Shown here one piece after another: positions 44,541-61,214 of a DNA stretch of 61,214 nt. Origin of the DNA: Anaerolineae bacterium (GTDB taxonomy: Bacteria; Chloroflexota; Anaerolineae; B4-G1); assembly GCA_034430655.1 (NCBI GenBank), contig DAOUEC010000177.1, positions 1-61,214 on the forward strand, in the 5' to 3' direction. The notes beneath the pieces were generated by a model that was not told the origin of the DNA, did not search any database, and saw nothing but the letters and a program-made list of their open reading frames with translations. Every line of letters begins with the position of its first letter. Positions within the stretch are counted from its first letter, which is position 1. A program made the translations under genes and the position numbers.

Positions 44541-44544
44541 CGGC

Positions 44545-44982: not shown

Positions 44983-45093
44983 GACATCAAAACCTCCACT
45001 TTTGTTCCTCCTACCCACCTATCTCGGTGAACATCCTTTGCGGGTCGAGACGAATGATACCTTCGCCATGGTCGGGTGTGTTTCTTCCTCTGG

Positions 45094-45177
45094 AAAAACC
45101 CGCCATCTCACCTGAAGTGCCCAACAAGCCGCCCGATAAGGCCGCAGGGGTCCACAACTGACAGGCGAGGTGGCGGG
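45094..45177 (-). terminator. Long-stem terminator-like structure with a U5 tail, between the hdr/nuo cluster and the mvh genes
   Basis: The minus-strand RNA has arms CCCGCCACCUCGCCUG and CAGGUGAGAUGGCGGG (16 bp; one mismatch, one G.U pair) separated by 47 nt, followed by UUUUU. Confidence 0.55.
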
Positions 45178-45186
45178 AATTCGTGC

Positions 45187-45618
45187 TTACAGAAATACCT
45201 CGTCCCAGATAGGAGTGGGGCCCAATTGCTCCACCTCCTCCGTAAACTCCTTCGCCACCTCTGCGAACCGGGGAGCCTCGGATGCTGAGACCCACGAAAG
45301 CCTGAAGCGGTCCGCCATTTCCAGGCCCAGTGTCTCGAAGATGCTCTTGAGCATCGCGGCCCGGCGGCGCGCGTGAAGGTTTCCTTTCTGGTAGTGACAT
45401 TGGCCAGGCCAGCACCCAGCGACCAACACGCCATCGGCTCCCTTGAGAAAAGCGGAGAGCACAAACAGCGGGTCAACCCGACCGGAGCACATCACACGGA
45501 CGACCATGACCGAAGGGGGCATCTGGAGTCTGGACACGCCAGCCGTATCGGCGGCAGTGTACGCGCACCAGTTACAGAGAAATCCCACGATCTTAGGTGT
45601 AAACTCTTGCTCTTCCAT
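45187..45618 (-). CDS. MvhD-like iron-sulfur protein (paralog)
   Basis: 'KIVGFLCNWCAYTAADTAG...VMCSGR...GADGVLVAGCWPGQCHY'. Start ATG 45618, with GGGGGAG upstream. Confidence 0.88.
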   Translation of the reverse strand: MEEQEFTPKIVGFLCNWCAYTAADTAGVSRLQMPPSVMVVRVMCSGRVDPLFVLSAFLKGADGVLVAGCWPGQCHYQKGNLHARRRAAMLKSIFETLGLEMADRFRLSWVSASEAPRFAEVAKEFTEEVEQLGPTPIWDEVFL

Positions 45619-45626
45619 TTCTCCCC

Positions 45627-46739
45627 CTACGTTGCAACCTGAGTGAGTTCTTCTTCTTCGAAAGTCATCAGCGGGATCTCCTCGGTGACGTCCTTCCCCG
45701 GCCGATAGCCAAACAGCGCCTGAACCGATGTTCCCACTTTCGAGAAGATGGTCGAGACGGGGATATCGGCAGGACACACGTCTGTGCACATACCACATCC
45801 CACGCAGGAGACACTCACGTGGGCCAGCCGCCCGAGTTGGAAGAAGATCGTGTTGGGCGGCACCCGCAGCCCGCCCTTTCTCTCCAACTCGGTTTCATAG
45901 ATCTCTGGCAAATACTCGCAGTCCTGAGACTCGAAGTAGCACAGGCTGCAATAGCAGATTGGGCACACCGTTTTGCAGGCGTGGCAGCCGATGCAACGGC
46001 CAAAGGTGCGGATCAGTTCCTGCATGCCCACTTCTACCCCGGCAAAGAGTTCCTCCCGGTAGGCCGCACGCTGGCTGTGGGAGCGCTGGATCGGTTCGGT
46101 CTCCAGTTCGTCCGACAGAGGCGTTCCCTCCAACCCCTCCACAAACTTGGCCCCCTTCTCAGTGTTCAAGAAGAGCGCGCATTGCGTGTCGAGGTCCTCC
46201 TTTCCCACCAGGGCGACCGTGATGTCGGCGTTGTCGGGCACAAAGTGCACGCAGGCACGACAGGTCGGCCGGACGTCGTGATCCAACTCGCCGTGCTTCA
46301 CCGCCTCCCAGTACCCAGGCGGCCTTTCCTTCAGATCGCCATTGGCGCCCACGTCAAGGGGATAGACGCCACCACAGGTCGAACTGATGAGCAGGAGGTT
46401 GTCCAGGCTGCCCTGGCTGCGCTTCACCAGTTCAATGAAAGCCCGCAACTCGCATGGCTTGACCACAGCCGCGACTGGCCCGGCGAGTGGCTCCCTCAAC
46501 GTCAGGCGGGAGAGCAATCCGCCCGCATTGGCTGGCATGAACGGGAGAAGGGGAAGCGCGGTGCCATCCACCCTGAACGCATCTGGGTCTGTGAACAACG
46601 AATACGCCACGCCCCCGTTGCTTCCCCCGGTCCTTCCCAGCGCAAGCACACCATTCACCCGGCCGCTCTCCAGGAGAGAGCGAAGTAACTCTCGCACGGC
46701 CTCCTCTGCTCCTTTATTGATCTTCAGGCCCTCAGGCAT
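45627..46739 (-). CDS. Fe-S oxidoreductase (FrhB/FlxC-like N-domain plus Cys-rich 4Fe-4S C-domain)
   Basis: 'VVKPCELRAFIELV', 'CIGCHACKTVCPICYC' and 'CVGCGMCTDVCP'. Paralog of 46732..47883 and 23441..24325. Confidence 0.65.
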   Translation of the reverse strand: MPEGLKINKGAEEAVRELLRSLLESGRVNGVLALGRTGGSNGGVAYSLFTDPDAFRVDGTALPLLPFMPANAGGLLSRLTLREPLAGPVAAVVKPCELRAFIELVKRSQGSLDNLLLISSTCGGVYPLDVGANGDLKERPPGYWEAVKHGELDHDVRPTCRACVHFVPDNADITVALVGKEDLDTQCALFLNTEKGAKFVEGLEGTPLSDELETEPIQRSHSQRAAYREELFAGVEVGMQELIRTFGRCIGCHACKTVCPICYCSLCYFESQDCEYLPEIYETELERKGGLRVPPNTIFFQLGRLAHVSVSCVGCGMCTDVCPADIPVSTIFSKVGTSVQALFGYRPGKDVTEEIPLMTFEEEELTQVAT

Positions 46740-47883
46740 CCTGTACCTCCCGCTTGTGATAGATCTCTACGTAGGGCTGCTCCACCTGGTGGAGTTCGTC
46801 CATCTCATAGGTCGCCAGGGGCAGTGGGTCCTCCAGGCTTCTGCCCGCGACGTACCCCAGCGTCTCCTGGGCCCGATCCGCCAGCAGGCTGAAGACCTGA
46901 GCGACAGGGATGGACATGGGGCAGGCATCCTCACACGTTCCACACGACACACACGAGAGGATCATGTGCGACGCCCGCCCCAGGTGAAACAGGAGGGTGT
47001 CGGGCGGGAACCTCAGCGCCCCTTTCCGTTCTGAGCGCGCCAGGTAGTTCTCAGGGGGGAGTTTCAACGCTGCCGATTCAAAGTAGCACTGACGACAGTA
47101 GCATACAGGGCAGACCCGCTGGCAGTTGTGGCAGTTGATACAATCGCTGAACACGTCCAGCAGTCCGTCCGGCCCCGCGATTCCCTCTCTCAGGTCCGCG
47201 TGGGCCTGCTGGCGCCGCTCCATCTGGGCCTTCTCCATCTCCTTGACCTGCGCAGTCCAGTCATCCAACGCTGCCTCCAGAGGCATATCCATACTCTCCA
47301 GGACGCGCTCTCCCTTCGGGCTACCCGGGATGACGAAGACCGTCCCATCCGCACTGCCCAGCGTGCCAATGTGCAGATCGGAGGCCGGCATGCTGAAGCG
47401 GTGGCAGATCTGGCAGGCCGGCCGCATGGGTGCGCGGTCCCAACGCTGGGATGCCTCTGCGAAGCGAGCCGCGCCGGCGGCCGGATCCTCGAGATAATCT
47501 GACAGGGGCAACACTCCAGGGCAGTCTACGGTGATCAGCCACAGATTGTCCAGGTGCGCCTGCTCAAGTTTGGTCAACTCGATCGCCGCCCGCGCCTCAC
47601 AGGGGCGCACGACCGCCGCGATGCGCTTACTTCCATTCCCGCGCATCGTCAGGCGGCTGATCGCTTTGCCACCCTGAACGGGCATCACCGGGGGCAGCGG
47701 AGAGGCATTTTCGAGGAGAGCCGGGTTCTGCAGCAGCAGGTAGGCGAACGAATCCTCCGCCGGCACCTGCACGGGTATGAGGAGTGCGTCAAAGACCTTT
47801 TTGTTCAATGCCTCCTTTAGCCAGCCGACGACGGCGGCTTCAACGCCGTCCTCTGCTGGCAGGATTGCACCTTTGTCGTTCAC
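46732..47883 (-). CDS. Fe-S oxidoreductase (paralog of 45627..46739)
   Basis: 'VVRPCEARAAIELT', 'CINCHNCQRVCPVCYC' and 'CVSCGTCEDACP'. Confidence 0.65.
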   Translation of the reverse strand: MNDKGAILPAEDGVEAAVVGWLKEALNKKVFDALLIPVQVPAEDSFAYLLLQNPALLENASPLPPVMPVQGGKAISRLTMRGNGSKRIAAVVRPCEARAAIELTKLEQAHLDNLWLITVDCPGVLPLSDYLEDPAAGAARFAEASQRWDRAPMRPACQICHRFSMPASDLHIGTLGSADGTVFVIPGSPKGERVLESMDMPLEAALDDWTAQVKEMEKAQMERRQQAHADLREGIAGPDGLLDVFSDCINCHNCQRVCPVCYCRQCYFESAALKLPPENYLARSERKGALRFPPDTLLFHLGRASHMILSCVSCGTCEDACPMSIPVAQVFSLLADRAQETLGYVAGRSLEDPLPLATYEMDELHQVEQPYVEIYHKREVQDA

Positions 47884-48311
47884 GTGTCGCTCCTTGTCTT
47901 CAGCGGATTGGGCCCTAGTTTCTTAATGTGGTCGTTGAACTCGGTGGCCGTGTCCACAAACCGCTGGCCCTCGCCGTGCGCCACGTAGCGGAACCAGACC
48001 CGCTCCGGCTCCAGGCCAAGCGTATCCAGGATGCTTGTCACCAGCGCGACTCGCCTGCGGGCGCGGAAGTTGCCGTCGTTGTAGTGACAGTCACCCGGAT
48101 AGCAACCACTGATCGCCACGCCATCCGCCCCCTCGATCAGCGGGCGAATGATATGCACCGCCGGCAGCGCCCCGGTGCAATTGACGCGGGACGGCCTCAC
48201 GTTCTCAGGATAATGCAGATGGTGGGCGGCAGCGGTCTCACCGCCACCGGAGCCACACCAACTGCACAGGAAGTAGATGATCCTGGGTTCGAACTCTTGC
48301 TCGTCGCTCAT
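47880..48311 (-). CDS. MvhD-like iron-sulfur protein (divergent paralog)
   Basis: 'RIIYFLCSWCGSGGGETAA...VNCTG...GADGVAISGCYPGDCHY'. Confidence 0.85.
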   Translation of the reverse strand: MSDEQEFEPRIIYFLCSWCGSGGGETAAAHHLHYPENVRPSRVNCTGALPAVHIIRPLIEGADGVAISGCYPGDCHYNDGNFRARRRVALVTSILDTLGLEPERVWFRYVAHGEGQRFVDTATEFNDHIKKLGPNPLKTRSDT

Positions 48312-48319
48312 ATTTCACC

Positions 48320-51280
48320 TCACACCAGCAAGGCATCGAGCGCGGCTATGGACTGCTCGCCCATAAAGTCACGCAGGTAAGAAGCATCGTTGGGACATAT
48401 CGCCACACACGAGCCGCACGAATCGCACAGGAAAGGATGGGTCCTGGCTACCTTCTTGAACTCGTCAATGTACCGCGCGCCGTAAGGACAGACGTCCACA
48501 CAGAGGCCACATCCCATGCACAGAGATTCGTACACATCGGCAACGAACATCTTGTTGGGAGGGGGCATCTTCTTCTTGCCGATGACCACCAGCACGCGGC
48601 CAGCCGCGTCCTTCGCGGTCAGGATCGTCTCCTCGAACGAGCGAGGCGAATGAGCCAACCCCACCGGGAAGATGCCGTTACCGGCCAGTTCGAAGGGCTT
48701 GGTCAGTTTCTTGATCGCTTCCTCGAAAGGATAGTTGCTGATGTCGCTGGAAAAGAAGCCCTCGTAGTCCAGCGGATAGTTCAACAACCGCGAGAGGGCC
48801 TGGCTGTTCTCCGCGTCCGGTACGATGCCGGTGCTCAGCGCGACCCAATCCGCCTGAACTCGCTGTTCCCCATTGACAACCTCCAGCCCGTTTCCGTTGC
48901 TCCACACCTCGGGGTAGCGATCGTCGGGGAAGCGAACGAACCGCACCCCCGCCTCCCTGGCGAGCCGGTAGTAATCCACTTTGCCGTAGGTCGCGATGTC
49001 ACGGTGGAAAACGGCGACCTCAGTTCCCTTCTCGCGCAGCGCGATGGCGTTCTTCAGCGCCTGGTTGCAGCAGAGCCGGGAGCAGTACGGGACCCCCGGA
49101 GTCCTTGAGCCCACGCACTGGATCATCGTCACCCGGCTGGCGGTCTCACCGCCGCTCATCTTCGCCTGGAGTTCCGTCTGCGTCATCACCCGTGGATCCT
49201 GGCCGTAGAGAAAGCCCTCTGGCCGGTACTCCTGGGCCCCCGTCGCCACGATGATCACGCCGGTGTCCACCGGGACGTGCCCCGTTGGCGCATCCACCAC
49301 CACGTGGTTGTTGCCCGCGTACCCCTCCGCCTGGGCCAGGTGCGCCTGAGTGTAGCAGGTGATGTTGTCAGCGTTCTCCACGGCGGAGATGAGCCCCTCC
49401 ACGTACTTCCGTTGCTCCTCATCCAGATACTGCATCTGCCCGCCCAGTTTCTCCTCGCGCTCCACCAGCGCGACGGGGAACCCGTTGGCGGCGATCTCGG
49501 CAGCCGCGGTCAGTCCGGCCAGCCCTCCGCCGACGACCAGTGCCCGTGGGATGAACGTGTCCATAGGTGGGCCAGCCTGCATCCCGCGCTTGACCTTCTC
49601 CACCCCGCCCCGGATCAGCGCCAGGGACTTTTCCAGCATCTTATCCCGGTCCGTGTGCACCTGTATGACGTCTTCCCGGAAGCGCAGGTACTCGCACAGG
49701 AGAGGGTTGAGCCCGGCCATCATCACGGCCTTGTTGTACTTGCCCTTCTTCTGCAAGGGCGTGCAGACGGCCAGGACGACCCGGTTGACACCGGACTGCT
49801 TGATGCGCTCGGCCGTCGCCTTGATCGTGGGGCCGGTGCAGCAGCCCTCGATGATCTCGGCGTGAGCGACGCCGGGCAGCGCCCGCACCTGCTCCTCCAG
49901 TGTCGGCAGGTCTATCCGCTCGTCGAACAGGCCGAAGCAACTGCATAAGAACACGCCGACGCGGATAGGCTCACCCTCCACGTCCCGCAGCGGTGGGCCG
50001 GGGGCCGGCTTAAAGTTCTTCTCCCCCAGGTACTTCTGCACCTCGGTCAGAGTCGCGCAGCCTTCCCAGACGGTCTCCGGGTTGCCCTTTGGCCCCGTGA
50101 GTTCCCCGACGGCAAAGATGCCGTCCACATCCGTCTCGCAGCACGAGAAGGGCCGGATGTGACAGAACCCGTTCTCGTCCGCCTGCACGCCGGTCAGCCG
50201 CGACAGTTCGGCCATCTGCGACGGGGGGCTTTGCCCTGTGACCAGGATGGCCAACTCGACGGTGTGCGTGTGCGATTCGCCGTTACTTCGACTATGCTCA
50301 GTACAAGCCGCAGAGGTATAGTGGATGGTCACCTGCTCAGCGCCGTCCTCGGGGACGATCTTGAGCGTTTCCGCCCGCTCTACACGCACACCGGCGTCCA
50401 GGGCTTTCTGGTACCACCGATAGTGCCCCTTTCCCGTCCCCCGATAGTCGTGCAGGAAGACGGCTACATCGGCCTGCGGGAGAATCTCCTTGAGCCGGAC
50501 GGCGCGGTAGATGGCGCTCACGCTCAGGTTATAGTTCTCGTATTCGACGCCCGGCCGGTTGAAGTGGGGCGTGACGACGATGTCGAAGGTCTGCGGGATC
50601 TTGCCGGACGGCAGGCGCACGGAATCGCGCACAAAGTTGGTCAGAAGCGAGCGCCTGGCCACCGCGGAGTTTCGGATCACGCTGGGGCTTTGCCCCAGCG
50701 CGAAATCGCGCAGGTCCTCATCGCTGGGTTCCTCGAACGTATCGGCCAGGATAATCGCCCCCACGTCGGCCTCCAGCACCTCCTCCGGCCGCTCGACCTT
50801 GAGGGCGCCAGTGGGGCATACTTCCTCACACTTACCGCAGCGGATGCAGTGCTCGAAGTCAATCACGTAGCAGTTCTCCCACGCCGCCTCGGGGATGACT
50901 CGGATCGCCTTGTGGCCATCTACCTCGACCGGACAGACCTCGATGCACCGGTCACACTCGGTGCAGGCGAAGTTGTTGACCACCTTGTCTCGCTTCTTGA
51001 ACTTGACGTGGAAATGGCCTGCCTCGCCGGAAACCTCCAGCAGTTCGGCGTTGTAGCAGTCCTGCATCGCGCCGAGGGCCTTGAACAGGCGCTGGGGCAT
51101 GTGCCCGCAGATCCAGCAGAAGTCGAGCGGCAGTTGGGCCAGCGCCTGATACTTCATCTCATCCACGTAGGAGCCACGGTTGAGCAGGATGAACTTGTGA
51201 CCGCTCTTGCCCAGGGCATACGCGGCCCGATAGCCGCCCAGATTGGTCCCATAGATCAACACTGTGCTCTCATTGCTCAT
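48320..51280 (-). CDS. Double-length HdrA-like flavoprotein (degenerate HdrA-like N-half plus complete HdrA-like C-half)
   Basis: 986 aa. The N-half has a dinucleotide-binding start and ferredoxin motifs ('CTECDRCIEVCP', 'CIRCGKCEEVCP'). A mid region, 'VGVFLCSCFGLF', resembles an HdrA N-domain. The C-half has 'VVGGGLAGLTAA', 'QCVGSRT', 'CSRLCCNQA' and terminal 2x[4Fe-4S] motifs. Confidence 0.8.
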   Translation of the reverse strand: MSNESTVLIYGTNLGGYRAAYALGKSGHKFILLNRGSYVDEMKYQALAQLPLDFCWICGHMPQRLFKALGAMQDCYNAELLEVSGEAGHFHVKFKKRDKVVNNFACTECDRCIEVCPVEVDGHKAIRVIPEAAWENCYVIDFEHCIRCGKCEEVCPTGALKVERPEEVLEADVGAIILADTFEEPSDEDLRDFALGQSPSVIRNSAVARRSLLTNFVRDSVRLPSGKIPQTFDIVVTPHFNRPGVEYENYNLSVSAIYRAVRLKEILPQADVAVFLHDYRGTGKGHYRWYQKALDAGVRVERAETLKIVPEDGAEQVTIHYTSAACTEHSRSNGESHTHTVELAILVTGQSPPSQMAELSRLTGVQADENGFCHIRPFSCCETDVDGIFAVGELTGPKGNPETVWEGCATLTEVQKYLGEKNFKPAPGPPLRDVEGEPIRVGVFLCSCFGLFDERIDLPTLEEQVRALPGVAHAEIIEGCCTGPTIKATAERIKQSGVNRVVLAVCTPLQKKGKYNKAVMMAGLNPLLCEYLRFREDVIQVHTDRDKMLEKSLALIRGGVEKVKRGMQAGPPMDTFIPRALVVGGGLAGLTAAAEIAANGFPVALVEREEKLGGQMQYLDEEQRKYVEGLISAVENADNITCYTQAHLAQAEGYAGNNHVVVDAPTGHVPVDTGVIIVATGAQEYRPEGFLYGQDPRVMTQTELQAKMSGGETASRVTMIQCVGSRTPGVPYCSRLCCNQALKNAIALREKGTEVAVFHRDIATYGKVDYYRLAREAGVRFVRFPDDRYPEVWSNGNGLEVVNGEQRVQADWVALSTGIVPDAENSQALSRLLNYPLDYEGFFSSDISNYPFEEAIKKLTKPFELAGNGIFPVGLAHSPRSFEETILTAKDAAGRVLVVIGKKKMPPPNKMFVADVYESLCMGCGLCVDVCPYGARYIDEFKKVARTHPFLCDSCGSCVAICPNDASYLRDFMGEQSIAALDALLV

Positions 51281-53088
51281 CTGCCTACCTCCACTGTCTG
51301 GGGCTCGAGCACGCGGAACAGCCCCTCAATCTGAGCCATAATCTGCTGGTCGGTGAAGTGATGCGCCGTGATGGCGCCGGAGGGGCAGGCTGCCGCACAG
51401 GTACCGCAGCCCTTGCACAGCGCCTCGTTGACGCGGGCGACGTTCTTCTCCTCGATGAAACTGATGGCGGTGTAGGGGCAGAGCGCGATGCAGGTCTTGC
51501 AGCCCGAGCAGAGCACCTCGTCCACGACAGAGATCGTCGGTGAGATGGTCACCTCACCCTTGTCCAGCAGCGCCAGCGCCATGGAAGCCGCCGCGCCAGC
51601 GTGAGCCACCGTATCCGGCACGTCCCTGGGCCCCTGGGCAGTCCCGGCCAGGAAGACGCCGTCTGTGTTGGTCTCCACCGGCCGCATCTTGGGATGGGCC
51701 TCGGCGAAGAAGCCATCCTCCGTGCGACTCAGGCCAAAGAGCGCCGCCACCCTATCAGCGTCGTGCGGGGCCTCGATGGCCGTGCTGAGCACGACCATGT
51801 CCACGTCCACCTGCACCAGCCGGCCCAGGTTGGCATCTTCGCCCTTGACGCGCAGTTTGCTGTCCTCTCGCCCATTTTGTGGCTCCAGCACCTCGACCTC
51901 GGCGCCGCGACCGCGCACCATACAGACGCCCTCCTTCTGCACCCGCTCGTAGAACTCCTCGTAGGCCTTGCCGAAGGCGCGCATGTCCATGTAAAACTCG
52001 TACACCTCGGCCCCGGTCTTGTCGCGCACCAGGTGGGCTTGCTTGAGAGAGTACATGCAGCAGATGCGGGAGCAGTAGGGATGGGCGTTGTGGTCACGGC
52101 TGCCGACGCAGTGGATGATCGCCACGCGCTCGGGCTTGCGCCCATCGGCCAGCAATATCTCACCGCCGGTGATGCCGCCGGCGTTGGAGAGGTGTTCGAA
52201 CTCCATCCCGGTGATGATGTTGGGCGACTTGCCGTAGGAGTACTGGGAAAGTTGGGCCGGATCCCACATCTCGAAGCCGGTGGCGACGATGATGGTCCCC
52301 ACGTCCAGTTCCAGTATCTCGTCCTGCTGGTCGAAGTCCACCGCGCCGGCCTCGCATATCATCTGGCAGACCCCGCAGGCGTCCGCGATCTCGCCGTCGG
52401 TGCGGTCGTTCTGGCGGAAGCGGATGCAGGTGTCGGTGTCAATCACTGGCACGCGGGGCACCGCCTGCATCGAAGGTACCCAGATAGCCGAGGTCGGCCC
52501 CAGCGGCTTCTCCTTGTAGACCGCTTCTTTCTCCAACACGGTCTCGATGGCACCGGTAGGGCATACGATGGTGCAGGCCCCACAGCCGATGCACTGGCGG
52601 GTCTTCTCCAGGAAGGGCGGCCCCACCTTCCGCTCAACACCGGACTGGGAGAAGTTCAACACGTCGGCTTTCACCAGTTCGTGGCACGTGCGCACGCACA
52701 GGCCACAGAGGATACATTTCTCGTCCGGGTTGTCCGTCGGAAAGGGTGGCTCCGTGATGCCGTACTCCCGCGCCAGGTCCTGGATGACCGGTACGTTGGG
52801 GCAGCGCGAGAGCATTAGCCCCAGGACGACCTTGCGGGCCTCAATAACAGCCGGAGAGCGGGTCTTGACCTCCAGCCCGTCCCACGCAGGGTGCGTGCAG
52901 GAGGTCTCCAGCCTGGAGCGGCCGCGGCGGATCACCTCCACCACACAGAGGCGGCAAGCGCCGAAGGGCTCCAGGAGTGGGTGATAGCATAAAGTAGGAA
53001 TCTCGATCCCGGCCTGCCGGGCGACCTCAAGAATGGTCTGCCCTTCTTCGGCCTGGATCTCTTGTCCGTCAATGATAAGTGTGACCAT
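51277..53088 (-). CDS. Fusion of a NuoG-like N-terminal Fe-S domain and the C-terminal two-thirds of HdrA
   Basis: The first roughly 190 aa ('IIDGQEIQAEEGQTILEVA...CYH...CRLCVVEV', 'CILCGLCVRTC', 'CIGCGACTIVCP') are paralogous to the fdhA N-terminus. From 'AVPRVPVIDTDTC' onward it aligns colinearly with hdrA (19588..21555) from 'AVPQYPVIDREHC' to the end ('HCVGSRD', 'CSRICCMYS'). Confidence 0.85.
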   Translation of the reverse strand: MVTLIIDGQEIQAEEGQTILEVARQAGIEIPTLCYHPLLEPFGACRLCVVEVIRRGRSRLETSCTHPAWDGLEVKTRSPAVIEARKVVLGLMLSRCPNVPVIQDLAREYGITEPPFPTDNPDEKCILCGLCVRTCHELVKADVLNFSQSGVERKVGPPFLEKTRQCIGCGACTIVCPTGAIETVLEKEAVYKEKPLGPTSAIWVPSMQAVPRVPVIDTDTCIRFRQNDRTDGEIADACGVCQMICEAGAVDFDQQDEILELDVGTIIVATGFEMWDPAQLSQYSYGKSPNIITGMEFEHLSNAGGITGGEILLADGRKPERVAIIHCVGSRDHNAHPYCSRICCMYSLKQAHLVRDKTGAEVYEFYMDMRAFGKAYEEFYERVQKEGVCMVRGRGAEVEVLEPQNGREDSKLRVKGEDANLGRLVQVDVDMVVLSTAIEAPHDADRVAALFGLSRTEDGFFAEAHPKMRPVETNTDGVFLAGTAQGPRDVPDTVAHAGAAASMALALLDKGEVTISPTISVVDEVLCSGCKTCIALCPYTAISFIEEKNVARVNEALCKGCGTCAAACPSGAITAHHFTDQQIMAQIEGLFRVLEPQTVEVGR

Positions 53089-53103
53089 ATTGTGTCCCTC
53101 CCA

Positions 53104-54897
53104 TTATCTCACGCCCACCGCGTCGAACTTGCACACGTCGAAGCAGACGCCGCACTTGATGCACAGGCCTGCGTCAATGACGTGCAACTCTTTCTTCTCC
53201 CCGCTGATCGCCTCCTGCGGGCACTTGCGGCGACACAGGCCACAGCCGATGCACTTGTCCGCGATGATATAGTACTCGATCAGCTCCTTACAGACGCCGG
53301 CCGGGCACTTTTTGTCCACGATGTGGGCCACGTACTCGTCACGGAAGTAGCGCAGCGTGCTGAGCACCGGATTAGGCGCTGACTTGCCCAGGCCGCACAG
53401 CGAGACTGACTTTACCACTCGCCCCAGAGTCTCCAGCGTCTCCAGGTCGGCCATCTCTCCCTGGCCCTCGGTGATGCGGGTCAGAATCTCCAGCATACGC
53501 TTGATTCCCTCGCGGCAGGGTGTACACTTGCCGCACGATTCATCCTTGAGAAAGTCGAGAAAATAGCGGGCGACGTCCACCACGCAGGTGCGGTCGTCCC
53601 AGACGATCACCCCGCCGGTGCCCATCATTGAGCCTGCCTCGGCCAACGTCTCATAGTCCATAGGCATATCCAGCAGGCTGGCGGGGAGACAGCCCCCCGA
53701 AGGGCCGCCGATCTGCATTGCTTTGAATTCCCGTCCCTTGGGAACACCACCTCCCATATCAAAGACCAGTTCGCGGACGGTGATGCCCATCGGCACCTCG
53801 ACCAGTCCCACGTTGTTGACCTTGCCGGCCAGCGAAAAGACCTGCGTTCCTTTGCTCGTTTCGGTACCGATACTGGCGAACCACTCGGCGCCACGACTGA
53901 TGATCTCCGGCACGATGTTCAGGGTCTTGACGTTGTTCAGACAACTGGGCCTGTCCCACAACCCTTTCTCAGTGGTGTGGATATGCTTGGGGCGTGGCTC
54001 GCTGACCTTGCCCTCTATGGCGTGCATCAGCGCGGTAGACTCACCACCCACGAAGGAGTGGGCCCCCAGCCTGAGTTCCAGGTCGAAATCAAAGCCGGAG
54101 CCCAGAATGTCCTCGCCCAGCAATCCATACTCTCGCGCCTGTTCGATAGCGGTCCTTATACTCCTCACCGCCAGCGTATGCTCGTAGGGGATGTAGAAGA
54201 ATCCCTGGTGAGCACCGATGGCGTAGGCGCCAATGATCATACCTTCCAGGATACTATGCGGATCGGCCTCCATCAGGGCGCGATCCATAAAGCAGTTAGG
54301 GTCGCCCTCGTCACCGTTGACGAGGGCGTACTTGATCTCGCCCTCGGCCTTACGGCCAGCCTCCCACTTGCGGCCGGTGGAGAAGCCAGCCCCGCCGCGG
54401 CCCCGCAGCCCTGACTTTTTGACCTCTTCGATGATCTCCTCAGTGGTCATCGAGGTGAGTGCCTTTGCCAGCGCCTGGTAGCCACCGACGGCAATGTACT
54501 CTTCGATGGACTGGGGGTTGATTAAACCACAGTGGCGCAAGACGATGCGCATCTGCTTACCATGAAAAGGGATGTCCTTGTAGTAAGGAATGTGTCTGCG
54601 TGTCGTCGGTTCTCTGTAAGTCAGCCGTTCGACGACCCGGCCTTTGACCAGTGTCTCCTCCACCAGTTCGGGCACGTCGGCGGCTTGCACCTTGATGTAA
54701 AAGATGCCATCAGGCTGGATCAGGAGCACCGGCCCCATAGAGCAAAAGCCCCGACAGCCGGCATTGACCACTCTGACCTCTTCCTCCAGGCCACGCCGTT
54801 TCACCTCCGCTTCAAGTGCCGGCATCAGGTCCGGTGCGCGGTCGTGGAGACAACTGACCAGTACGTCAGCTCGATGTCTTCCATTATGTTCAGCCAT
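53104..54897 (-). CDS. NuoF-like NADH-binding FMN / Fe-S subunit (HydB/HoxF type)
   Basis: 'GRGGAGFSTGRKW', 'ESCGKCTPCREG' and C-terminal 2x[4Fe-4S] ('CIGCGLCRRKCP', 'CIKCGVCFDVC'). Start ATG 54897, with AGGAGG 6 nt upstream. Confidence 0.9.
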   Translation of the reverse strand: MAEHNGRHRADVLVSCLHDRAPDLMPALEAEVKRRGLEEEVRVVNAGCRGFCSMGPVLLIQPDGIFYIKVQAADVPELVEETLVKGRVVERLTYREPTTRRHIPYYKDIPFHGKQMRIVLRHCGLINPQSIEEYIAVGGYQALAKALTSMTTEEIIEEVKKSGLRGRGGAGFSTGRKWEAGRKAEGEIKYALVNGDEGDPNCFMDRALMEADPHSILEGMIIGAYAIGAHQGFFYIPYEHTLAVRSIRTAIEQAREYGLLGEDILGSGFDFDLELRLGAHSFVGGESTALMHAIEGKVSEPRPKHIHTTEKGLWDRPSCLNNVKTLNIVPEIISRGAEWFASIGTETSKGTQVFSLAGKVNNVGLVEVPMGITVRELVFDMGGGVPKGREFKAMQIGGPSGGCLPASLLDMPMDYETLAEAGSMMGTGGVIVWDDRTCVVDVARYFLDFLKDESCGKCTPCREGIKRMLEILTRITEGQGEMADLETLETLGRVVKSVSLCGLGKSAPNPVLSTLRYFRDEYVAHIVDKKCPAGVCKELIEYYIIADKCIGCGLCRRKCPQEAISGEKKELHVIDAGLCIKCGVCFDVCKFDAVGVR

Positions 54898-54907
54898 TCT
54901 CATCCTC

Positions 54908-55279
54908 CTACCCTGCCACCCGGCCGACAACCCACTCTTCCACCACGTTGCCCTGTACCACGTGTTCCTCGATGATACGCGGCACCATGGCGGGCATGAC
55001 GTTGCCGTAGGTGACGCGGGGTTCGTCGCCCTGCTGGATGTCCACCAGTGGCTCTTTCGAGCACATGCCGATGCAGCCAACTGTGGTCACGTGCGCGTCA
55101 ATGTTACGCGCTTCCAACTCGGTCAGAATGGCGTGCATCGTCTCCCGCGCGCCGGCCGAGATGCCACAGGTGCCCATACCTACCGTGATGGTCGTGCTTG
55201 TCTCGGTGCGGGCCTGGATGTCTCCTTGCAGTTGCTGGCGCAACTTTTGCAGTTCTTCTAAACTCTTAAGTTTGGGCAT
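54908..55279 (-). CDS. Thioredoxin-like [2Fe-2S] ferredoxin
   Basis: 123 aa. 'GMGTCGISAGA' and 'VGCIGMCSKEP'. Confidence 0.8.
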   Translation of the reverse strand: MPKLKSLEELQKLRQQLQGDIQARTETSTTITVGMGTCGISAGARETMHAILTELEARNIDAHVTTVGCIGMCSKEPLVDIQQGDEPRVTYGNVMPAMVPRIIEEHVVQGNVVEEWVVGRVAG

Positions 55280-55294
55280 TGTGTTATCCCCTCC

Positions 55295-55762
55295 CTATGC
55301 TGCCTCTAGAAGCGCGTAACTCTCTATTATTTCGCCGACACGATCGGTGGTCATCTTGGCATACGGTTCCTCGTTGACCATCACAAAAGGTGCCTGCGCA
55401 CAGGCTCCCAGACAGGAGGTCGCCTCCAGTGAGAACTTGGCGTCGGAAGTGCTCTCACCAACCTTGATCCCCAGTTCCCGCTCGAATGCTTCCAGGATAC
55501 GCGGGCCGCCGTGTATGTGGCAGGCGGTGCCCAGGCACACGCGGATGCAATACTCCCCCTTCGGTCTGAGGGTGAAACTGCGGTAGAAAGTGGCCAGGTG
55601 ATACACCTCGCCCAGAGACGCGTCCAGCCGCTCGGCCACCAGTTCCAGCGCCTCGCGCGGCAGGTAGTTGTACTCCCGCTGGATATCCTGAAGCACGGCC
55701 AGGCTGGCCGTCCGGTCAGCGCCGTAGCGATCAATGATCTCGTTGACTTTATCCAGGCTCAT
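55295..55762 (-). CDS. NuoE-like [2Fe-2S] subunit (HydC/HoxE type)
   Basis: 'LAVLQDIQREYNYLP', 'RVCLGTACH' and 'SCLGACAQAP'. Confidence 0.9.
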   Translation of the reverse strand: MSLDKVNEIIDRYGADRTASLAVLQDIQREYNYLPREALELVAERLDASLGEVYHLATFYRSFTLRPKGEYCIRVCLGTACHIHGGPRILEAFERELGIKVGESTSDAKFSLEATSCLGACAQAPFVMVNEEPYAKMTTDRVGEIIESYALLEAA

Positions 55763-56604
55763 CGCTCTCCGACTCTCCTCTCCCCAACGCTCATCTCACC
55801 CATCTTGATCAGTTTCAAGCGCGGGATGCGCCGCGTCAGGCACTCGGTCCAGCACAGGCCGCAGCCGGTGCACTTGTCCTCGTCCACGTAGCGGGCCTTC
55901 TTGCGCACCTTGACCTTGAAGTTGCCCACATAGCCCGAAACTTCCTCGACCACACTGTAACTCAGGAGCGTGATGTTGGGATGCCGACCGGCATCCATCA
56001 TCTTGGGGCCCAGAATTCAGGTACTACAGTCGAGGGTGGGGAAAGTCTTGTCCAGTTCGGCCATGTGCCCACCGATGGAGGGCTCCCGCTCGACCAGGTA
56101 GACCGGGTAGCCAGCGTCGGCCATCGTGAGCGCCGCCTGGATGCCGGCGATGCCCCCGCCGACGACGAGTGCCGCTTTGGTGACCGGCTCCACGCGCGGC
56201 TCCAATGCCTCCTGGTAGGCCACCCGATAGACGGCCGAACTGACCAGCCGCTTTGCCTTGGCGGTCGCCAGCCCCATGTCCTTGATGACCCAGGAGCAGT
56301 GCTCGCGGATGTTGGCCATGGCGAAGTAGTAGGGATTGAGGCCGGCCTCGGCGACGGCGGTCTGAAAGGTGGGCTCGTGCATGCGCGGGGTGCAGGAAGC
56401 GACCACCACGCGGGTGAGGCCCAACTCCCGGATGTCGTCCTTGATCATGTTCTGGCCGGGCTCGGAGCACATGTACCTGTACTGGCGGGCGACGGTCACG
56501 TTGGGCAGCCGGCTGGCAAAGGCGACCACTTCGGGCACATTGACCGTGGCGGCGATGTTGATACCGCACTCGCAGATGTACACGCCGATTTTAGGTTGCT
56601 CCAT
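55759..56604 (-). CDS. hdrA: N-terminal third of HdrA as a stand-alone ORF, with in-frame UGA (predicted selenocysteine)
   Basis: ORFs 56017..56727 and 55759..56001 share one frame and are joined by TGA at 56017..56019. The read-through '[27 protein letters not shown]' aligns with '[27 protein letters not shown]' of the Cys paralog. Start ATG 56604 (MEQPKIGVYICECG). Homology ends after 'CTGCGLCWTEC', and the ORF stops at 55759. Confidence 0.8.
55979..55996 (-). promoter_or_regulatory. Candidate SECIS hairpin for the hdrA N-fragment
   Basis: The minus-strand RNA is GGAUGCC-GGUC-GGCAUCC: a 7-bp stem and a GGUC loop. It starts 20 nt after the UGA. Confidence 0.6.
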
Positions 56605-56679
56605 ATTTACACCTCTCATCTGTGATAGCAAGATTCGTCCATCCATTGATAATGCTGCAATGTCATACACACCTCCTAA

Positions 56680-56749
56680 AATGAATGGCGAATGGCGAAT
56701 TGCGAATGGCGAATTTTCCCAGGTCATTCGCCATTCGTCATTCTACAGG
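56680..56749. repeat. Heptamer arrays (GAATGGC / GAATTGC) in inverted orientation
   Basis: The left arm reads aatgaat ggcgaat ggcgaat tgcgaat ggcgaat. The right arm reads ggtcatt cgccatt cgtcatt. It lies between the stop of the 56743 gene and the hdrA-N start. Confidence 0.85.
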
Positions 56750-57963
56750 TATTCAACCGACACCAACTTGCCCCGCGCCTTCATATCGCGTATCAGTTCC
56801 TCCACCACCAACTGCCGCAGCGGGACGGTGCCGGAATTTGTAATTTCGATTTTCGATTTTCGAATTTCCATGGCCTGGGCAGGATTGACCGCCAGGCCGA
56901 CGATGAAGTGGATTCTGTCGGCTGCCAGCAGCGCACGGGCCAGCCGCGTGGCGCCGTCTTCCCCTCCAGGCAGATCGCGTACTCGCTTCGCCTCCGCCAT
57001 GCGTTCCCGCGCTTTGCCCAGCGTCACCAACCCCTCCGTGACCAGGTCCACCCCCTCCAGGCGCGAGACGGGCGGCACCTCTGCCCAGCCATCTTCGGGG
57101 CGGGGCTCTAACTCCAACCTGGCCCCCAGCAGCCGGGCGGCGATCTGGGCGGTGGTATCGCCGCATAAGACCCGTGTGCCCGGCTCCACCATCAATTTCT
57201 CCAGCGTTGCCTCGTCCTGTGCCGGGTCGGCCGGCGGGCCGGTCCAGACGGTGGCGCGGCGCTCTGGGCGGACATGCATGGCTACGACAGTCACGTCCTG
57301 CCGGGGTGGTTCGGGGTTCAGGCGGCGGTAGGTGCGCAGCAGCGCGCCCAGCAGTTCGTCGGCGTCGCAGCGGGTGTCGGTCCAGCGCCGTACGGCGACA
57401 GCGATGTCGGTCCAGCCCCACCCCCCTCTCCGCCCCCCCCCGGCCCCCCCCAACTTTGGGGGGGAAGTCCCCCTATAGGGGGGATGGGAGGGTTGGGGGC
57501 ACAGGTAGCCCTGGCCGACCATCACCATGTAGTCGCCATCGCGCAGCCGGAAGCGACATTCGCGCAATAGCCGCCCGTGGACGACCTCCTCGCTTAGCGG
57601 CAGGAACTCCACCTCGCCGCCTCGGATCAGGCACAAAGGCAGGGTTTCGCACTCCACCAGGTGGGCCTGGTCTCCGTCCAACACCTGCAGGATGGAGAAG
57701 GTGACCTCCGAACGTGAAACGTGTGGCGCAGCGATGAGGGTCTCCGCCACGCGGTCAGGCGCGTCTCCCGCTTGCAGCATTCCCAGAGCGTGCTCCGCCG
57801 TCCGCCCGGCTTGCGCCGCTCCCTTCACCCCGCCCTGCGGGCTGCTGGCAAGGATGGCGCAAAAATACTCTTCGGTTCGAAAGGTTCTCACCGCTTCCCC
57901 GCACACCTCTTCACCGGCCCGGGCGAGGCTCTGATGCGTGGTCTCAATCCACAAACTCGACAT
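56743..57963 (-). CDS. Regulatory protein with a degenerate SpoIIE/PP2C-like N-domain (putative)
   Basis: 406 aa. The N-half loosely fits the SpoIIE-type phosphatase topology ('CGEAV...FCAILASS...'), but the acidic metal ligands are not obvious. Its position between an HATPase gene and a NuoE/F cluster matches regulator sets seen next to bifurcating hydrogenase and FDH operons. Confidence 0.45.
   Translation of the reverse strand: MSSLWIETTHQSLARAGEEVCGEAVRTFRTEEYFCAILASSPQGGVKGAAQAGRTAEHALGMLQAGDAPDRVAETLIAAPHVSRSEVTFSILQVLDGDQAHLVECETLPLCLIRGGEVEFLPLSEEVVHGRLLRECRFRLRDGDYMVMVGQGYLCPQPSHPPYRGTSPPKLGGAGGGRRGGWGWTDIAVAVRRWTDTRCDADELLGALLRTYRRLNPEPPRQDVTVVAMHVRPERRATVWTGPPADPAQDEATLEKLMVEPGTRVLCGDTTAQIAARLLGARLELEPRPEDGWAEVPPVSRLEGVDLVTEGLVTLGKARERMAEAKRVRDLPGGEDGATRLARALLAADRIHFIVGLAVNPAQAMEIRKSKIEITNSGTVPLRQLVVEELIRDMKARGKLVSVEYL
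56833..56867. repeat. Heptamer array inside the 56743..57963 CDS (CGATTTT / CGAATTT)
   Basis: The sequence reads ggaattt gtaattt cgatttt cgatttt cgaattt. It encodes 'EIRKSKIEITNS'. Confidence 0.85.
57444..57483. repeat. C7/8-AACTTT-G7-AAG hairpin element (copy 2) plus an adjacent C5-TATA-G6 palindrome, inside a CDS
   Basis: 57445..57467 is identical to 22846..22868 and is followed by ccccctatagggggg. It encodes 'PPYRGTSPPKLGGAGGG'. Confidence 0.9.
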
Positions 57964-57985
57964 CCGCCCTCAATTAATCTGCGTC

Positions 57986-58525
57986 CTACCTCAGTCCAGC
58001 CTCCCCTTCGGCGATGAACTCCCCCAGCCAGCGCCGCACGGCCGGGTGGGTGAGCGGCACGCCCCCCAACTCGGCCCGCAACTCGGCCGTGTCGAACTCG
58101 AAGATGCGCCCGTCCACGCGGTGGACGTAGTGAAGATCAACGGGCCGCTCGGCCATGAGAAACGCCAATAGCGTGCCTTTGACGTCGCCCAGTGGGGCGC
58201 GATCAATGTGACTATGCTGAAAAGTGACGACCACCCGCGTCCCCTGCCCGACCTGCGATTCGACGCGCAGCGCACCGTTGCATCGCTCAGCGGCGGCGGC
58301 GAGGAGCGGCAACCCCAACCCCACGTGGCGCGTCCGGCGCGTGGTGAAGAAGGGATCGAGCACGCGGGCCAGCGTCCCCTCGTCCATCCCTTTTCCGTTG
58401 TCAATGACCTCGATGGTCAGCCGGTCGGCCTCCAGGTCTTCCTCGATTCGTAACTCGACCCGCGTTGCATCCGCCTCAATAGTGTTCTCCAGCACATCCA
58501 GGATGTGTAGAGATAACTCTAGCAC
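57986..58525 (-). CDS. Histidine-kinase-like ATPase (HATPase_c only)
   Basis: 'LHILDVLENTIEADATRVEL', 'VIDNGKGMD' and 'GLGLPLLAAAAE'. GTG 58525 has GGGAG upstream and overlaps the PHP gene stop (GTGCTAG). Confidence 0.8.
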   Translation of the reverse strand: MLELSLHILDVLENTIEADATRVELRIEEDLEADRLTIEVIDNGKGMDEGTLARVLDPFFTTRRTRHVGLGLPLLAAAAERCNGALRVESQVGQGTRVVVTFQHSHIDRAPLGDVKGTLLAFLMAERPVDLHYVHRVDGRIFEFDTAELRAELGGVPLTHPAVRRWLGEFIAEGEAGLR

Positions 58526-59283
58526 GCCACCGCTCCCGACCGCAGCCCGTCCACCCATACCTCACGGCCCTCGGCGCCGGCCAGGGCCAGGGCGATCTCG
58601 GCGACTGTGGGCGCGGCCATTTTGAACGTCGTGCGCCTCACCATCTCCTTCAGCCGGTGGGCGTCACCGTTCGCCACCAGGCTATAATGCGCCAGTTGGG
58701 GGAAGCGTTCGCGGGCCTCGACCGGGCCGATGTTGGTTGAGATCTCAACCCCCACGACGTCCAACTCCGGCGGGATAAAGCCCAGGTTGGAGATGATGCT
58801 GTACATCGTCCGGTCCACGTGGGCCGGGACGCACAGCCCGTCCAGTTCACGCACACGCTGTACCACGTCTTCTACAGAAAAAAAGGTCGAGATCAGGAGC
58901 AGCCGGTCGAGGTAGCCCACTGGCTCCCCGACCGCGTCGAGCAGCAGTTGCTCTCCGAAGAATGCCTCGTCGTTCTTAAGTGGCGGCATGTTAGCGTAGA
59001 CCTGCTCCTGCCAGGAAGCCGCTTGCTCCAACGTATCGAACAGGGTGAGCAGGTGCACCTCCTCGCGGGTCTGAATCTCCATGCCCGGAAGCACCGTGAC
59101 GCCTGTGCCCTGTGCGGCGCTGACCACCGCTGCGGCGTTCTCGGCCGAGTTGTGGTCGGTGACGGCGATGATCTGTAGTCCCAGTTCCTGCGCCCGCTCC
59201 ACGATGAGATCCGGGAGCATCTCCAGTTCGGCGCAAGGCGAAAGACAGGTGTGAATGTGCAGGTCAGCCAGGAAAAAGTGCAT
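58519..59283 (-). CDS. PHP-domain metal-dependent phosphoesterase
   Basis: 'FLADLHIHTCLSPCA' and 'IIAVTDHNS'. Confidence 0.85.
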   Translation of the reverse strand: MHFFLADLHIHTCLSPCAELEMLPDLIVERAQELGLQIIAVTDHNSAENAAAVVSAAQGTGVTVLPGMEIQTREEVHLLTLFDTLEQAASWQEQVYANMPPLKNDEAFFGEQLLLDAVGEPVGYLDRLLLISTFFSVEDVVQRVRELDGLCVPAHVDRTMYSIISNLGFIPPELDVVGVEISTNIGPVEARERFPQLAHYSLVANGDAHRLKEMVRRTTFKMAAPTVAEIALALAGAEGREVWVDGLRSGAVAC

Positions 59284-60047: not shown

Positions 60048-61214
60048 TTACCCAGCCCCCACAGCGGCCTGCATGGACTTCCACACCAGTTCGGTGAGGT
60101 CCATCGCCCGCATGCGGATCTTGTTCTGGCGTGCGCCCTCCTGCAGTGTGCGCTTGCACTGCTGGCAGGCGGAGAGGACGTACTTCGCGCCAGTGGCCTG
60201 CGCCTGCGCCATGCGCTTCGCCGCGACGCCGGCGGTAACGGTGCGGTCGGCTACTTCGACGTCGCCGCCACCCCCGCAGCAAAGGGCGTTCTCGCGGCTG
60301 GCGGACATCTCGCGGAACTCCAGCCCCGGTATGCGGGCTATCACCTCACGTGGCGCGTCATAGACCCCGCTCTTGCGCCCCAGGTCACAGGGGTCGTGAT
60401 AGGTCATGACCGCCTCCACCGGCCCGAGGGCCAATTTGTCGCCGGCGAGCAGTTCGGCCAGAAACTCGCTGGCGTGCTGCAACTGGATGCCGGAGATGTC
60501 CACGACCTCGGGGTAGAGATGCGTCCAGGCGTAGTAGCAGGAGGGGCAAGTGAAGACGATCTTTTTGGCCCCCACGGCCCGTGCCTTCTGAACGTTGTGC
60601 TGGGCCAACTTAGCCATGCGATCACCCATTCCCGCGATGTGGAGGGGATAGCCACAACACCACTCATCCCTGCCCAGCGTGGTGAACTCCACATCGGCCC
60701 GCTCCATAATCTGCACGAACGCCTGGGGGATGCTGTAGACGCGGGGGTAGAAGGAACTGACGCAGCCGATGAAGTAAAGAACCTCGGCCTTCCTGCGGCG
60801 GGGCTTGACGCCACGCGGAGTATGGGCGAGGTTCTGGCTCCAAATCTGGCGGCTCTTGTTATCGTCGCCGGAGATGTTGTGGCTGCTGGCAATTGTCTCC
60901 CCGAACATCTTCATTCCCTCAGGGACATTGACGTCCACCCGCGTGGCGTACTCCTTGAGAGCGATCATCGTATCCGTGATCGGGATGCCTCGCGGGCAGC
61001 GCACCTGACACGACTTACAGGTGGTACAGAGCCAGAAGGTGCGGCTGGACAGAACGTCCTCTTTCATTCCCAGTCGCACCATTTGCCACAGTTGGCGGGG
61101 GGTATAGTCCATCGCGAAGGCGGTGGGACACGAGGCACTACAGGTGCCGCATTGGATGCAGGAGAGCAGTTGCTCCCACTCCGGCGTCACCTGTCTGGCC
61201 AGTGTACGATCGAG
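60048..61214 (-). CDS. HdrD/GlpC-like Fe-S protein with CCG domains (5' end possibly beyond the window)
   Basis: 'CIQCGTCSASCP', 'CTTCKSCQVRCP', and the CCG-type motifs 'CPSCY' and 'LCCGGGG'. The frame stays open to the window edge. GTG 61190 is a possible start. Confidence 0.8.
   Translation of the reverse strand, partial: LDRTLARQVTPEWEQLLSCIQCGTCSASCPTAFAMDYTPRQLWQMVRLGMKEDVLSSRTFWLCTTCKSCQVRCPRGIPITDTMIALKEYATRVDVNVPEGMKMFGETIASSHNISGDDNKSRQIWSQNLAHTPRGVKPRRRKAEVLYFIGCVSSFYPRVYSIPQAFVQIMERADVEFTTLGRDEWCCGYPLHIAGMGDRMAKLAQHNVQKARAVGAKKIVFTCPSCYYAWTHLYPEVVDISGIQLQHASEFLAELLAGDKLALGPVEAVMTYHDPCDLGRKSGVYDAPREVIARIPGLEFREMSASRENALCCGGGGDVEVADRTVTAGVAAKRMAQAQATGAKYVLSACQQCKRTLQEGARQNKIRMRAMDLTELVWKSMQAAVGAG

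Follow-up and report, generated by a model that had tools for sequence, protein, structure and literature searches.

HdrA is among the best-known selenoprotein families, and the hairpins that accompany selenocysteine (Sec) codons in bacteria, termed Sec insertion sequence (SECIS) elements, are textbook knowledge; those of Escherichia coli fdhF and Moorella thermoacetica fdhA have GGUC-containing loops that are bound by SelB. Here we analyze a UGA codon that falls within a gene for the N-terminal part of HdrA (hdrA-N) on contig DAOUEC010000177.1 of an Anaerolineae bacterium of the phylum Chloroflexota (assembly GCA_034430655.1), together with a hairpin shortly downstream of it; we refer to the whole stretch analyzed, 61,214 nucleotides (nt) in length, as the window. 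With a probability of about 0.92, we consider this UGA (56019..56017, minus strand) to be a Sec codon that is read through via a bacterial-type SECIS at 56001..55973.

Sec-containing HdrA has been described from several lineages, and reviews count HdrA among the selenoprotein families, with CxxU as its motif (PMC13188914, PMC9312934). The initial annotation of the window regarded the Sec form as established in Methanococcales and some Deltaproteobacteria; it is indeed catalogued in both, and in Clostridia as well (PMC1794560). The Sec-HdrA of Methanococcales (M. maripaludis, with Sec197, and M. jannaschii) belongs to the same family as the window protein and shares with it the homologous residue, the same CxxU motif and an association with genes for MvhD and Mvh-type hydrogenase. 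The archaeal SECIS, however, lies in the 3′ untranslated region and works with a different set of factors, whereas the predicted Chloroflexota element sits inside the open reading frame (ORF) right after the UGA. Methanogen HdrA is moreover a single chain of ~650 amino acids (aa) that works with HdrBC on CoM-S-S-CoB, whereas the window HdrA is encoded in two pieces with NuoE/NuoF-type genes in between and, unlike methanogen Hdr, is accompanied by no adjacent hdrBC, just by a HdrD/GlpC-like gene at 60048..61190.

The Sec-HdrA genes of Deltaproteobacteria and Clostridia (among others, those of Syntrophobacter fumaroxidans and Moorella thermoacetica) likewise show an in-ORF SECIS, Sec and Cys paralogs and a split form (PMC1794560). 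In Deltaproteobacteria, Sec and Cys paralogs of HdrA have been described within one genome, along with an arrangement in which an unknown gene separates hdrA_N from hdrA_C (PMC1794560). Compared by description, the two phyla differ in what lies between the halves, which is one unknown gene in Deltaproteobacteria and, in the window, genes for NuoE, a small [2Fe-2S] protein and NuoF. The coexistence of Sec and Cys HdrA in a Chloroflexota-like genome, initially singled out as notable, is not supported as such given the deltaproteobacterial precedent, and the use of Sec has itself already been reported for Anaerolineae (PMC4959059).

An in-frame UGA at a known selenocysteine position of HdrA

The hdrA-N coding sequence occupies 55759..56604 on the minus strand and comprises 281 codons including the predicted Sec196; its assignment draws on a match to the solved HdrA of Methanothermococcus thermolithotrophicus (5ODC_A), on FAD/NAD matches in Pfam and on orthologs in 80 loci. 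In translation of the minus strand, the gene starts at the ATG at 56604, which is preceded by GAGAGGTG, and opens with MEQPKIGVYICECG. As had been noted at the outset, the TGA at 56019..56017, codon 196 of 281, interrupts an otherwise continuous and conserved frame, which runs for 85 further codons to a terminal TGA at 55761..55759; this stop overlaps the ATG of the next, NuoE-like gene as ATGA. Ordinary stops in the window are otherwise most often UGA (28 of 58 ORFs), which indicates that the genetic code is not reassigned. From its N terminus, the product comprises a Fe-S domain and the beginning of the thioredoxin-reductase domain, where FAD is bound; it then reaches into the inserted ferredoxin domain of HdrA and ends right past the first Cys motif there.

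The read-through product matches 5ODC_A over residues 1-255 with E = 1.8e-103, and the C-fragment encoded further downstream matches HdrA residues 241-653, so that the two pieces together carry the HdrA fold. The window also encodes a full-length Cys-type HdrA paralog (19588..21555, minus strand; NCBIfam HdrA2, 855 bits), which has TGC at 20979..20977 and no hairpin downstream. Alignment of the read-through hdrA-N product with this paralog, proposed in the initial annotation, holds at 64% identity over residues 5-277, and its extent of 81 codons beyond the UGA bears out the claim that conservation continues for more than 60 codons past the stop.

We also compared the site with known Sec-HdrA sequences, as had been suggested. 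U196 aligns to Cys197 of 5ODC_A, with C193-S-T-U196 standing opposite C194-S-I-C197; that cysteine has been described as a ligand which one HdrA protomer supplies to the N-terminal [4Fe-4S] cluster of the other (PMC9012536). In the cryo-electron microscopy structure of the M. maripaludis Hdr-Vhu-Fwd complex (2026), this position is Sec197; the residue was observed joined to a cysteine, in the space between cluster A3 and the FAD, and its role was explicitly left open (PMC13518236). Given this alignment to Cys197/Sec197 and the CxxU motif, the predicted Sec codon (56017..56019, minus strand) occupies a canonical site.

Conservation of the codon and of the downstream frame

To place the window gene in context we used 80 related loci (70-94% protein identity, ~77 genomes) from a scan in which each prokaryotic species was represented by one genome, all of them from Chloroflexota metagenome-assembled genomes labelled Anaerolineae, Anaerolineales, Thermoflexales, Caldilineae or Chloroflexia. 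TGA is present at the aligned codon in 80/80 loci, and an 81st match to the motif, the second copy of a tandem pair in locus L045, has TGC. A search of ~5.8 billion proteins gave a complementary picture among the best 120 homologs considered: 32 are 195-residue proteins, 90-99% identical and all ending in ...PTLDCS(T/P), and the remaining 88 are longer and have Cys at the next position in every case (88/88).

The codons beyond the UGA vary in the manner of coding sequence. Across 80 distinct sequences, codons +1 to +5 encode ILGPK with zero amino-acid entropy while their synonymous-codon entropy amounts to 0.66-1.64 bits (32 nucleotide haplotypes over these codons), and coding-type variation persists for at least 60 codons past the UGA. 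This codon pattern indicates that the downstream frame is under protein-level selection and is clearly translated. Decayed sequence behind a true truncation, an outcome initially named as one that would speak against Sec, was not seen; the downstream codons are selected in 80 loci.

A conserved hairpin downstream of the UGA

The hairpin reported in the initial annotation, GGAUGCC-GGUC-GGCAUCC, is present as described, with a perfect stem of seven base pairs (bp) that begins exactly 20 nt from the UGA. Its arms are GGATGCC (55996..55990) and GGCATCC (55985..55979), and they close the loop GGTC (55989..55986), the first base of which lies 27 nt from the UGA. This upper helix (55979..55996, minus strand) stands out by its near-invariant pairs and its synonymous entropy. 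In the minimum-free-energy fold it is extended by a lower helix of 3 bp (AUG 56001..55999 with CAU 55975..55973), separated from it by an AU/CAA internal loop, such that the whole predicted SECIS spans 55973..56001 on the minus strand. In published bacterial SECIS elements the apical loop lies 16-37 nt from the UGA (PMC10778597) and contains an invariant G (PMC4607533), and the hdrA hairpin agrees with both the spacing (27 nt) and the loop G. The candidate element has the features by which a bacterial SECIS can be judged from sequence. Perfect 7-bp hairpins with loops of 3-6 nt number 58 in the 122 kb formed by both strands of the window, and only the one in hdrA-N has a GGTC loop; the chance that a given TGA has such a hairpin 16-37 nt downstream is ~1%, or ~0.02% when the GGTC loop is included. 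The motif GCCGGTC(N)GGC occurs three times against 1.1 expected, which is not significant alone.

Conservation of the hairpin in UGA-bearing relatives, the absence of which would, in the initial assessment, have argued against Sec, proved to be very high. In an alignment of 73 distinct sequences, 99.8% of the cells in the upper helix are paired, the GGUC loop never changes (73/73) and the pairs of the lower helix are retained in 67-73 sequences. At stem pair 29-36, 69 sequences have C-G, three (L024, L032, L040) have U-A and one (L062) has C·A, and the U-A form represents one compensatory change, possibly a single event. Synonymous-codon entropy averages 0.10 bits over hairpin codons +8 to +14 compared with 1.05 bits over the 98 degenerate flanking codons lying up to 60 codons either side of the UGA (Mann-Whitney P = 6.7e-6). 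Four of the seven hairpin codons (GAT GCC GGT CGG CAT CCC AAC) are absolutely invariant, with zero entropy at GAT, GCC, GGT and CAT, and the wobble C of AAC, which pairs with G in the lower helix, is nearly invariant (synonymous entropy 0.10). The peptide encoded by the hairpin, MMDAGRHP, is frozen in UGA-bearing genes and varies freely in Cys-type homologs.

The element is missing downstream of the Cys codon in the window paralog, in the Cys copy of L045 and in a KSB1 Cys ortholog. The ortholog in L081 (8586-8645; ENA ERZ4756917 NODE_599) is of the Cys type, with TGC and 78% identity, and nonetheless carries a complete hairpin, ATGATGGATGCCGGTCGGCATCC. We interpret this hairpin as a fossil SECIS, the signature of a recent Sec-to-Cys replacement; recent replacements of this kind have been described for other families (PMC1794560).

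Two relatives carry more than one copy of hdrA-N. In Thermoflexales bacterium H21_290 (L045:7400-9100), a Cys copy (TGC 8849, without hairpin) comes 864 nt after a Sec copy (TGA 7985, with hairpin), a tandem that resembles the Sec/Cys isoform pairs of Methanococcus, and L056 has two Sec copies.

A second selenoprotein gene in the window

A scan of every in-frame TGA in the window with a coding signature on both sides returned a single site besides hdrA, namely the UGA at 28236..28234 in the gene for the formate dehydrogenase alpha subunit (fdhA; 26557..29331, start approximate, minus strand). The gene scores 837 bits against TIGR01591, above the cutoff of 666, and its UGA falls in the motif HCARL-U-HSSTVAGL. 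Downstream lies a predicted SECIS (28181..28239, hairpin 28203..28223, minus strand) with an 8-bp stem (CGGUGGCC/GGCCGCCG), a GGUCU loop and 18 nt from UGA to loop; both the fold and an Rfam match point to it, the latter being to SECIS_3 (RF01989) over the full length of the model at 40.7 bits and E = 2.6e-8, below the gathering score of 63. Gene callers would break fdhA into ORFs of 399 and 554 aa, and a NuoE-NuoF fusion gene (29399..31168) adjoins it.

The fdhF/fdhA elements described by SECIS_3 resemble the hdrA hairpin in lying immediately 3′ of the UGA and in presenting a G-rich GGUC loop on a GC-rich helix. Within the window, the fdhA and hdrA hairpins share a GCC-GGUC-(N)-GGC core, with GCC-GGUCU-GGC in fdhA and GCC-GGUC-GGC in hdrA; they differ in the distance from UGA to loop (18 nt versus 27 nt), and their flanks encode different peptides.

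Genes for SelB and Sec-type formate dehydrogenase have been reported for Anaerolineae (PMC4959059). On the basis of this literature and of fdhA in the window, we infer that the machinery for Sec decoding is present in the genome: two independent genes that appear to require Sec within 61 kb argue strongly for it, and the argument is the stronger because fdhA belongs to an archetypal bacterial selenoprotein family. No in-frame TGA was found in the two MvhD genes, in the MvhA gene or in a PDO_seleno_TRX-family gene (9767..10426), all of which thus appear to be Cys forms. The last of these encodes a protein disulfide oxidoreductase of TIGR02187 (PDO_seleno_TRX) and overlaps the start of a thioredoxin reductase gene, the pair spanning 9767..11412 on the plus strand; the TIGR02187 family includes selenoprotein members.

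Weighing alternative explanations

The prediction of Sec at this Cys position is strongly supported by the conservation across 80 loci of the TGA, of the hairpin and of the frame that follows, by the alignment to Cys197/Sec197 and by fdhA. Several observations nevertheless weigh against it. The folding energy of the hdrA hairpin is not unusual compared with shuffled sequences (z = -1.45 and -0.51), and Rfam has no family that matches it, even at E ≤ 10; at gathering thresholds the whole window is without a match, and the hdrA region is not matched at E ≤ 10 by the SECIS_3 covariance model, so that the element is not a member of this fdhA-specific family. Six of the seven upper-stem pairs never vary, the lone compensatory pair occurs in three related sequences, and formal covariation statistics do not exceed shuffle controls, although this test is uninformative because the helix is nearly invariant. 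Furthermore, searches for selA, selB, selD and tRNA-Sec, run over the window and 83 loci from Chloroflexota and metagenomes (altogether 1.17 Mb), gave nothing; of this genome they covered the 61-kb window. In particular, tblastn with the E. coli SelA, SelB and SelD proteins gave no matches in the window and the 83 loci, an NCBIfam scan of ~30 window ORFs showed no sel genes, and ARAGORN found no tRNA-Sec in loci L001-L060 or in the window, which has no tRNA gene at all. As a candidate SECIS, the hdrA hairpin is convincing solely through comparative data, and the case for RNA-level selection, as read from the alignments, is one of synonymous-site invariance, not of covariation.

One may postulate that the UGA is a real stop, in which case the gene would yield a 195-aa protein and a re-initiated 80-aa protein, and the hairpin would have another role such as the control of re-initiation. 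An ATG-initiated ORF of 80 aa (56001..55759, opening with AUG-AUG) does begin 15 nt past the UGA, the HdrA gene is already split elsewhere, and gene callers report 195-aa products. We nevertheless consider this scenario highly improbable: the ILGPK stretch between the UGA and the AUG is invariant as protein and synonymously variable, which points to translation in this very frame; the corresponding segment of the solved HdrA, C197-ILAPKM, is continuous inside its FAD domain; the site is exactly the known Sec position; and L081 displays a simple interchange of TGA and TGC with all else kept. Read-through that does not depend on selenium, by a near-cognate tRNA (Cys or Trp) or some other suppression, would be compatible with the fact that downstream structures can stimulate read-through and with the lack of visible Sec machinery in the window and the 83 loci. 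It would leave unexplained, however, why the hairpin has the spacing and the G-containing loop of bacterial SECIS elements, why the GCC-GGUC-GGC core is common to the hdrA hairpin and the fdhA SECIS of the window, and why the codon falls where a known selenoprotein family has either Sec or Cys (PMC13188914, PMC13518236); the canonical Sec-fdhA in the same genome also implies working Sec decoding, and we judge selenium-independent read-through to be very unlikely. A nonsense mutation in a decaying gene, or an error of assembly, has nothing in its favor beyond the stop itself. It is scarcely credible and is refuted by the comparative data, as 80 independent assemblies share the TGA, the frame beyond it is intact and selected, and the operon is conserved.

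Under the favored interpretation, that of a Sec codon, the hairpin at 56001..55973 would act as a SECIS in the hdrA-N mRNA and recruit SelB·GTP·Sec-tRNA(Sec) to the ribosome paused at the UGA. The chain would then continue to the real stop at 55759 and give a 281-residue protein with Sec196 in the sequence C-S-T-U. Sec196 would correspond to Cys197/Sec197 of methanogen HdrA, a residue placed between the bifurcating FAD and the [4Fe-4S] cluster of the N-terminal domain; accounts of that residue describe it either as a ligand given to a cluster across the HdrA dimer or as one partner in a Cys-Sec redox pair. HdrA-N presumably assembles with the NuoG-N-fused C-fragment of HdrA and the intervening NuoE- and NuoF-type subunits.

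Gene neighborhood and the split HdrA

Translationally coupled to hdrA-N is a gene for a NuoE/HydC-like [2Fe-2S] subunit (55295..55762; PF01257, E = 2.6e-50), which follows hdrA-N in 51 loci. Next come genes for a small thioredoxin-like [2Fe-2S] protein (54908..55279; weak PF01257 match, position conserved in 49 loci), for a NuoF/HydB-type FMN/NADH subunit with C-terminal 2×[4Fe-4S] (53104..54903, start approximate; PF01512, PF10589 and Fer4; present in 47 loci) and for a NuoG/HydA-N-terminal-like domain ([2Fe-2S] plus 2×[4Fe-4S]; Fer2_4 and Fer4 in Pfam) fused to the C-fragment of HdrA (51277..53088), all on the minus strand. Residues 165-599 of this 603-aa fusion align to residues 241-653 of the full-length paralog with 52% identity. 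Further genes on the same strand encode a 986-aa HdrA-like protein, two FrhB-like proteins, two MvhD proteins and then MvhG and MvhA; the 986-aa protein is an addition seen in the window and in L003, and the two FrhB-like proteins are an addition in the window. The order split HdrA, NuoE, ferredoxin-like protein, NuoF, NuoG-N-HdrA-C and MvhD is shared by ~50 of the 80 loci, with MvhG and MvhA next where the contig reaches that far, and the Pfam domain order of the window genes is that of NuoE-, NuoF- and NuoG-N-like subunits encoded together, as in an NADH-ferredoxin module of the Bfu/HydABC type. The shared operon is often preceded by PHP, HATPase and 406-aa genes, and the upstream PHP, HATPase and phosphatase-like genes are usual for HydABC operons. 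In the window, the operon extends over 42100..59283 on the minus strand and comprises genes for PHP, HATPase-like and 406-aa proteins (the last without a family match), hdrA-N, and NuoE through MvhA.

Class II benzoyl-CoA reductase (Bam) and other complexes of the Bfu/HydABC family that join a NuoEF-type module to a HdrA module (PMC9304861) offer a further point of comparison, since there too a HdrA-type flavoprotein is clustered with NuoE-, NuoF- and NuoG-N-like genes and MvhD. In contrast to these systems, the window operon has no tungsten-containing BamB and no [FeFe] H-cluster domain, genes for an MvhD-MvhG-MvhA [NiFe] hydrogenase follow in most relatives, and the HdrA polypeptide is cut at the inserted ferredoxin domain.

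The initial annotation had found it notable that the Sec form is the split one, an association that did not hold up in the wider set. About 28 loci encode an unsplit HdrA of 650-660 aa or, in a few cases (L060, 10001-13420; L062; L079), a HdrA of ~1139 aa with a GltD/NfnB-like NAD(P)H/FAD insertion, all with the same UGA196 and the same hairpin. As both the unsplit and the domain-inserted proteins carry these features, Sec belongs to the Chloroflexota HdrA clade and not to the split form. The point of insertion is the inserted ferredoxin domain, exactly where the window gene is split with NuoE and NuoF in between, which suggests that this domain is a recurrent plug-in site for electron-input modules. 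The Cys paralog of the window sits in a cluster with AsrA/AsrB-like FAD/NAD subunits, and the Sec gene in the NuoEF/Mvh cluster; their placement in different gene clusters indicates that the two are not interchangeable isoforms.

These arrangements lead to a more interesting, though unproven, possibility that concerns the enzyme and not the codon, namely a Mvh-HdrA-NuoEF supercomplex. In this uncharacterized Chloroflexota enzyme, the inserted ferredoxin domain would be the point at which HdrA is severed, and its pieces would connect both with a NuoE/NuoF/NuoG-N (Bfu/HydBC-type) NADH-ferredoxin module and with an MvhADG [NiFe] hydrogenase, thereby bringing two different bifurcation devices into one complex, with a selenolate at the junction of the FAD and the N-terminal cluster tuning the hand-over. 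We put this forward tentatively and think it rather less likely than its absence. No description of a split HdrA-NuoEF-Mvh complex was found in the literature, which is weak evidence given incomplete coverage.

No hdrB or hdrC adjoins hdrA-N in the window. The HdrD/GlpC-like gene, which encodes a HdrD/GlpC/TfrB-like protein with 4Fe-4S and two CCG domains, lies on the minus strand upstream of the operon, 3.4 kb from hdrA-N, and the Cys-type relatives L081 and L082 have hdrC- and hdrB-like genes at the equivalent upstream position, before the operon, which may be a sign that the HdrA complex includes a disulfide-reducing subunit.

The region just upstream of hdrA-N contains heptamer tandem repeats, GAATGGC ×4.6 and an inverted CATTCGC ×2.7 (56683..56743 and 56844..56868), which together form an 18-nt inverted repeat of 94% identity. 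A third array, TTTCGAT ×3.6, lies inside the 406-aa ORF and encodes an AT-rich KSKIEI stretch. Related arrays of the TACGAAT or CACG type occur upstream of hdrA-N in L002, L003, L004, L007, L010, L011, L013 and L026, and such arrays may serve as operators or represent a mobile repeat. Between repeats and gene lies a 16-codon leader ORF, MTLQHYQWMDESCYHR (56666..56616, minus strand), whose own ribosome-binding site, AGGAGG, is strong and whose end falls shortly ahead of the ribosome-binding site of hdrA-N. Relatives L002, L003 and L008 have homologs of 19 codons, and L018 has a similar ORF; at the position that is TGA in the window, those relatives have CGA.

Implications for Chloroflexota

We found no explicit report of Sec-HdrA in Chloroflexi/Chloroflexota in the literature, although coverage was incomplete and this is weak evidence of novelty. 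The Chloroflexota Sec-HdrA joins a known selenoprotein family, and nothing mechanistically new is implied by it; its occurrence will be unsurprising to a specialist, and its use is in annotation. Dozens of public genomes of Anaerolineae, Thermoflexales and their Chloroflexota relatives carry a 195-aa "hypothetical" or truncated HdrA that should be re-annotated as a selenoprotein of 281 aa or of ~650 aa. The clade further provides natural Sec-to-Cys comparisons, in the putative fossil SECIS of L081 and the tandem pair of L045, for a residue whose role was left open in the M. maripaludis study (PMC13518236). For the organisms themselves, which are abundant in sediments and digesters, the prediction is that hydrogen, NADH and ferredoxin metabolism would be selenium-dependent.

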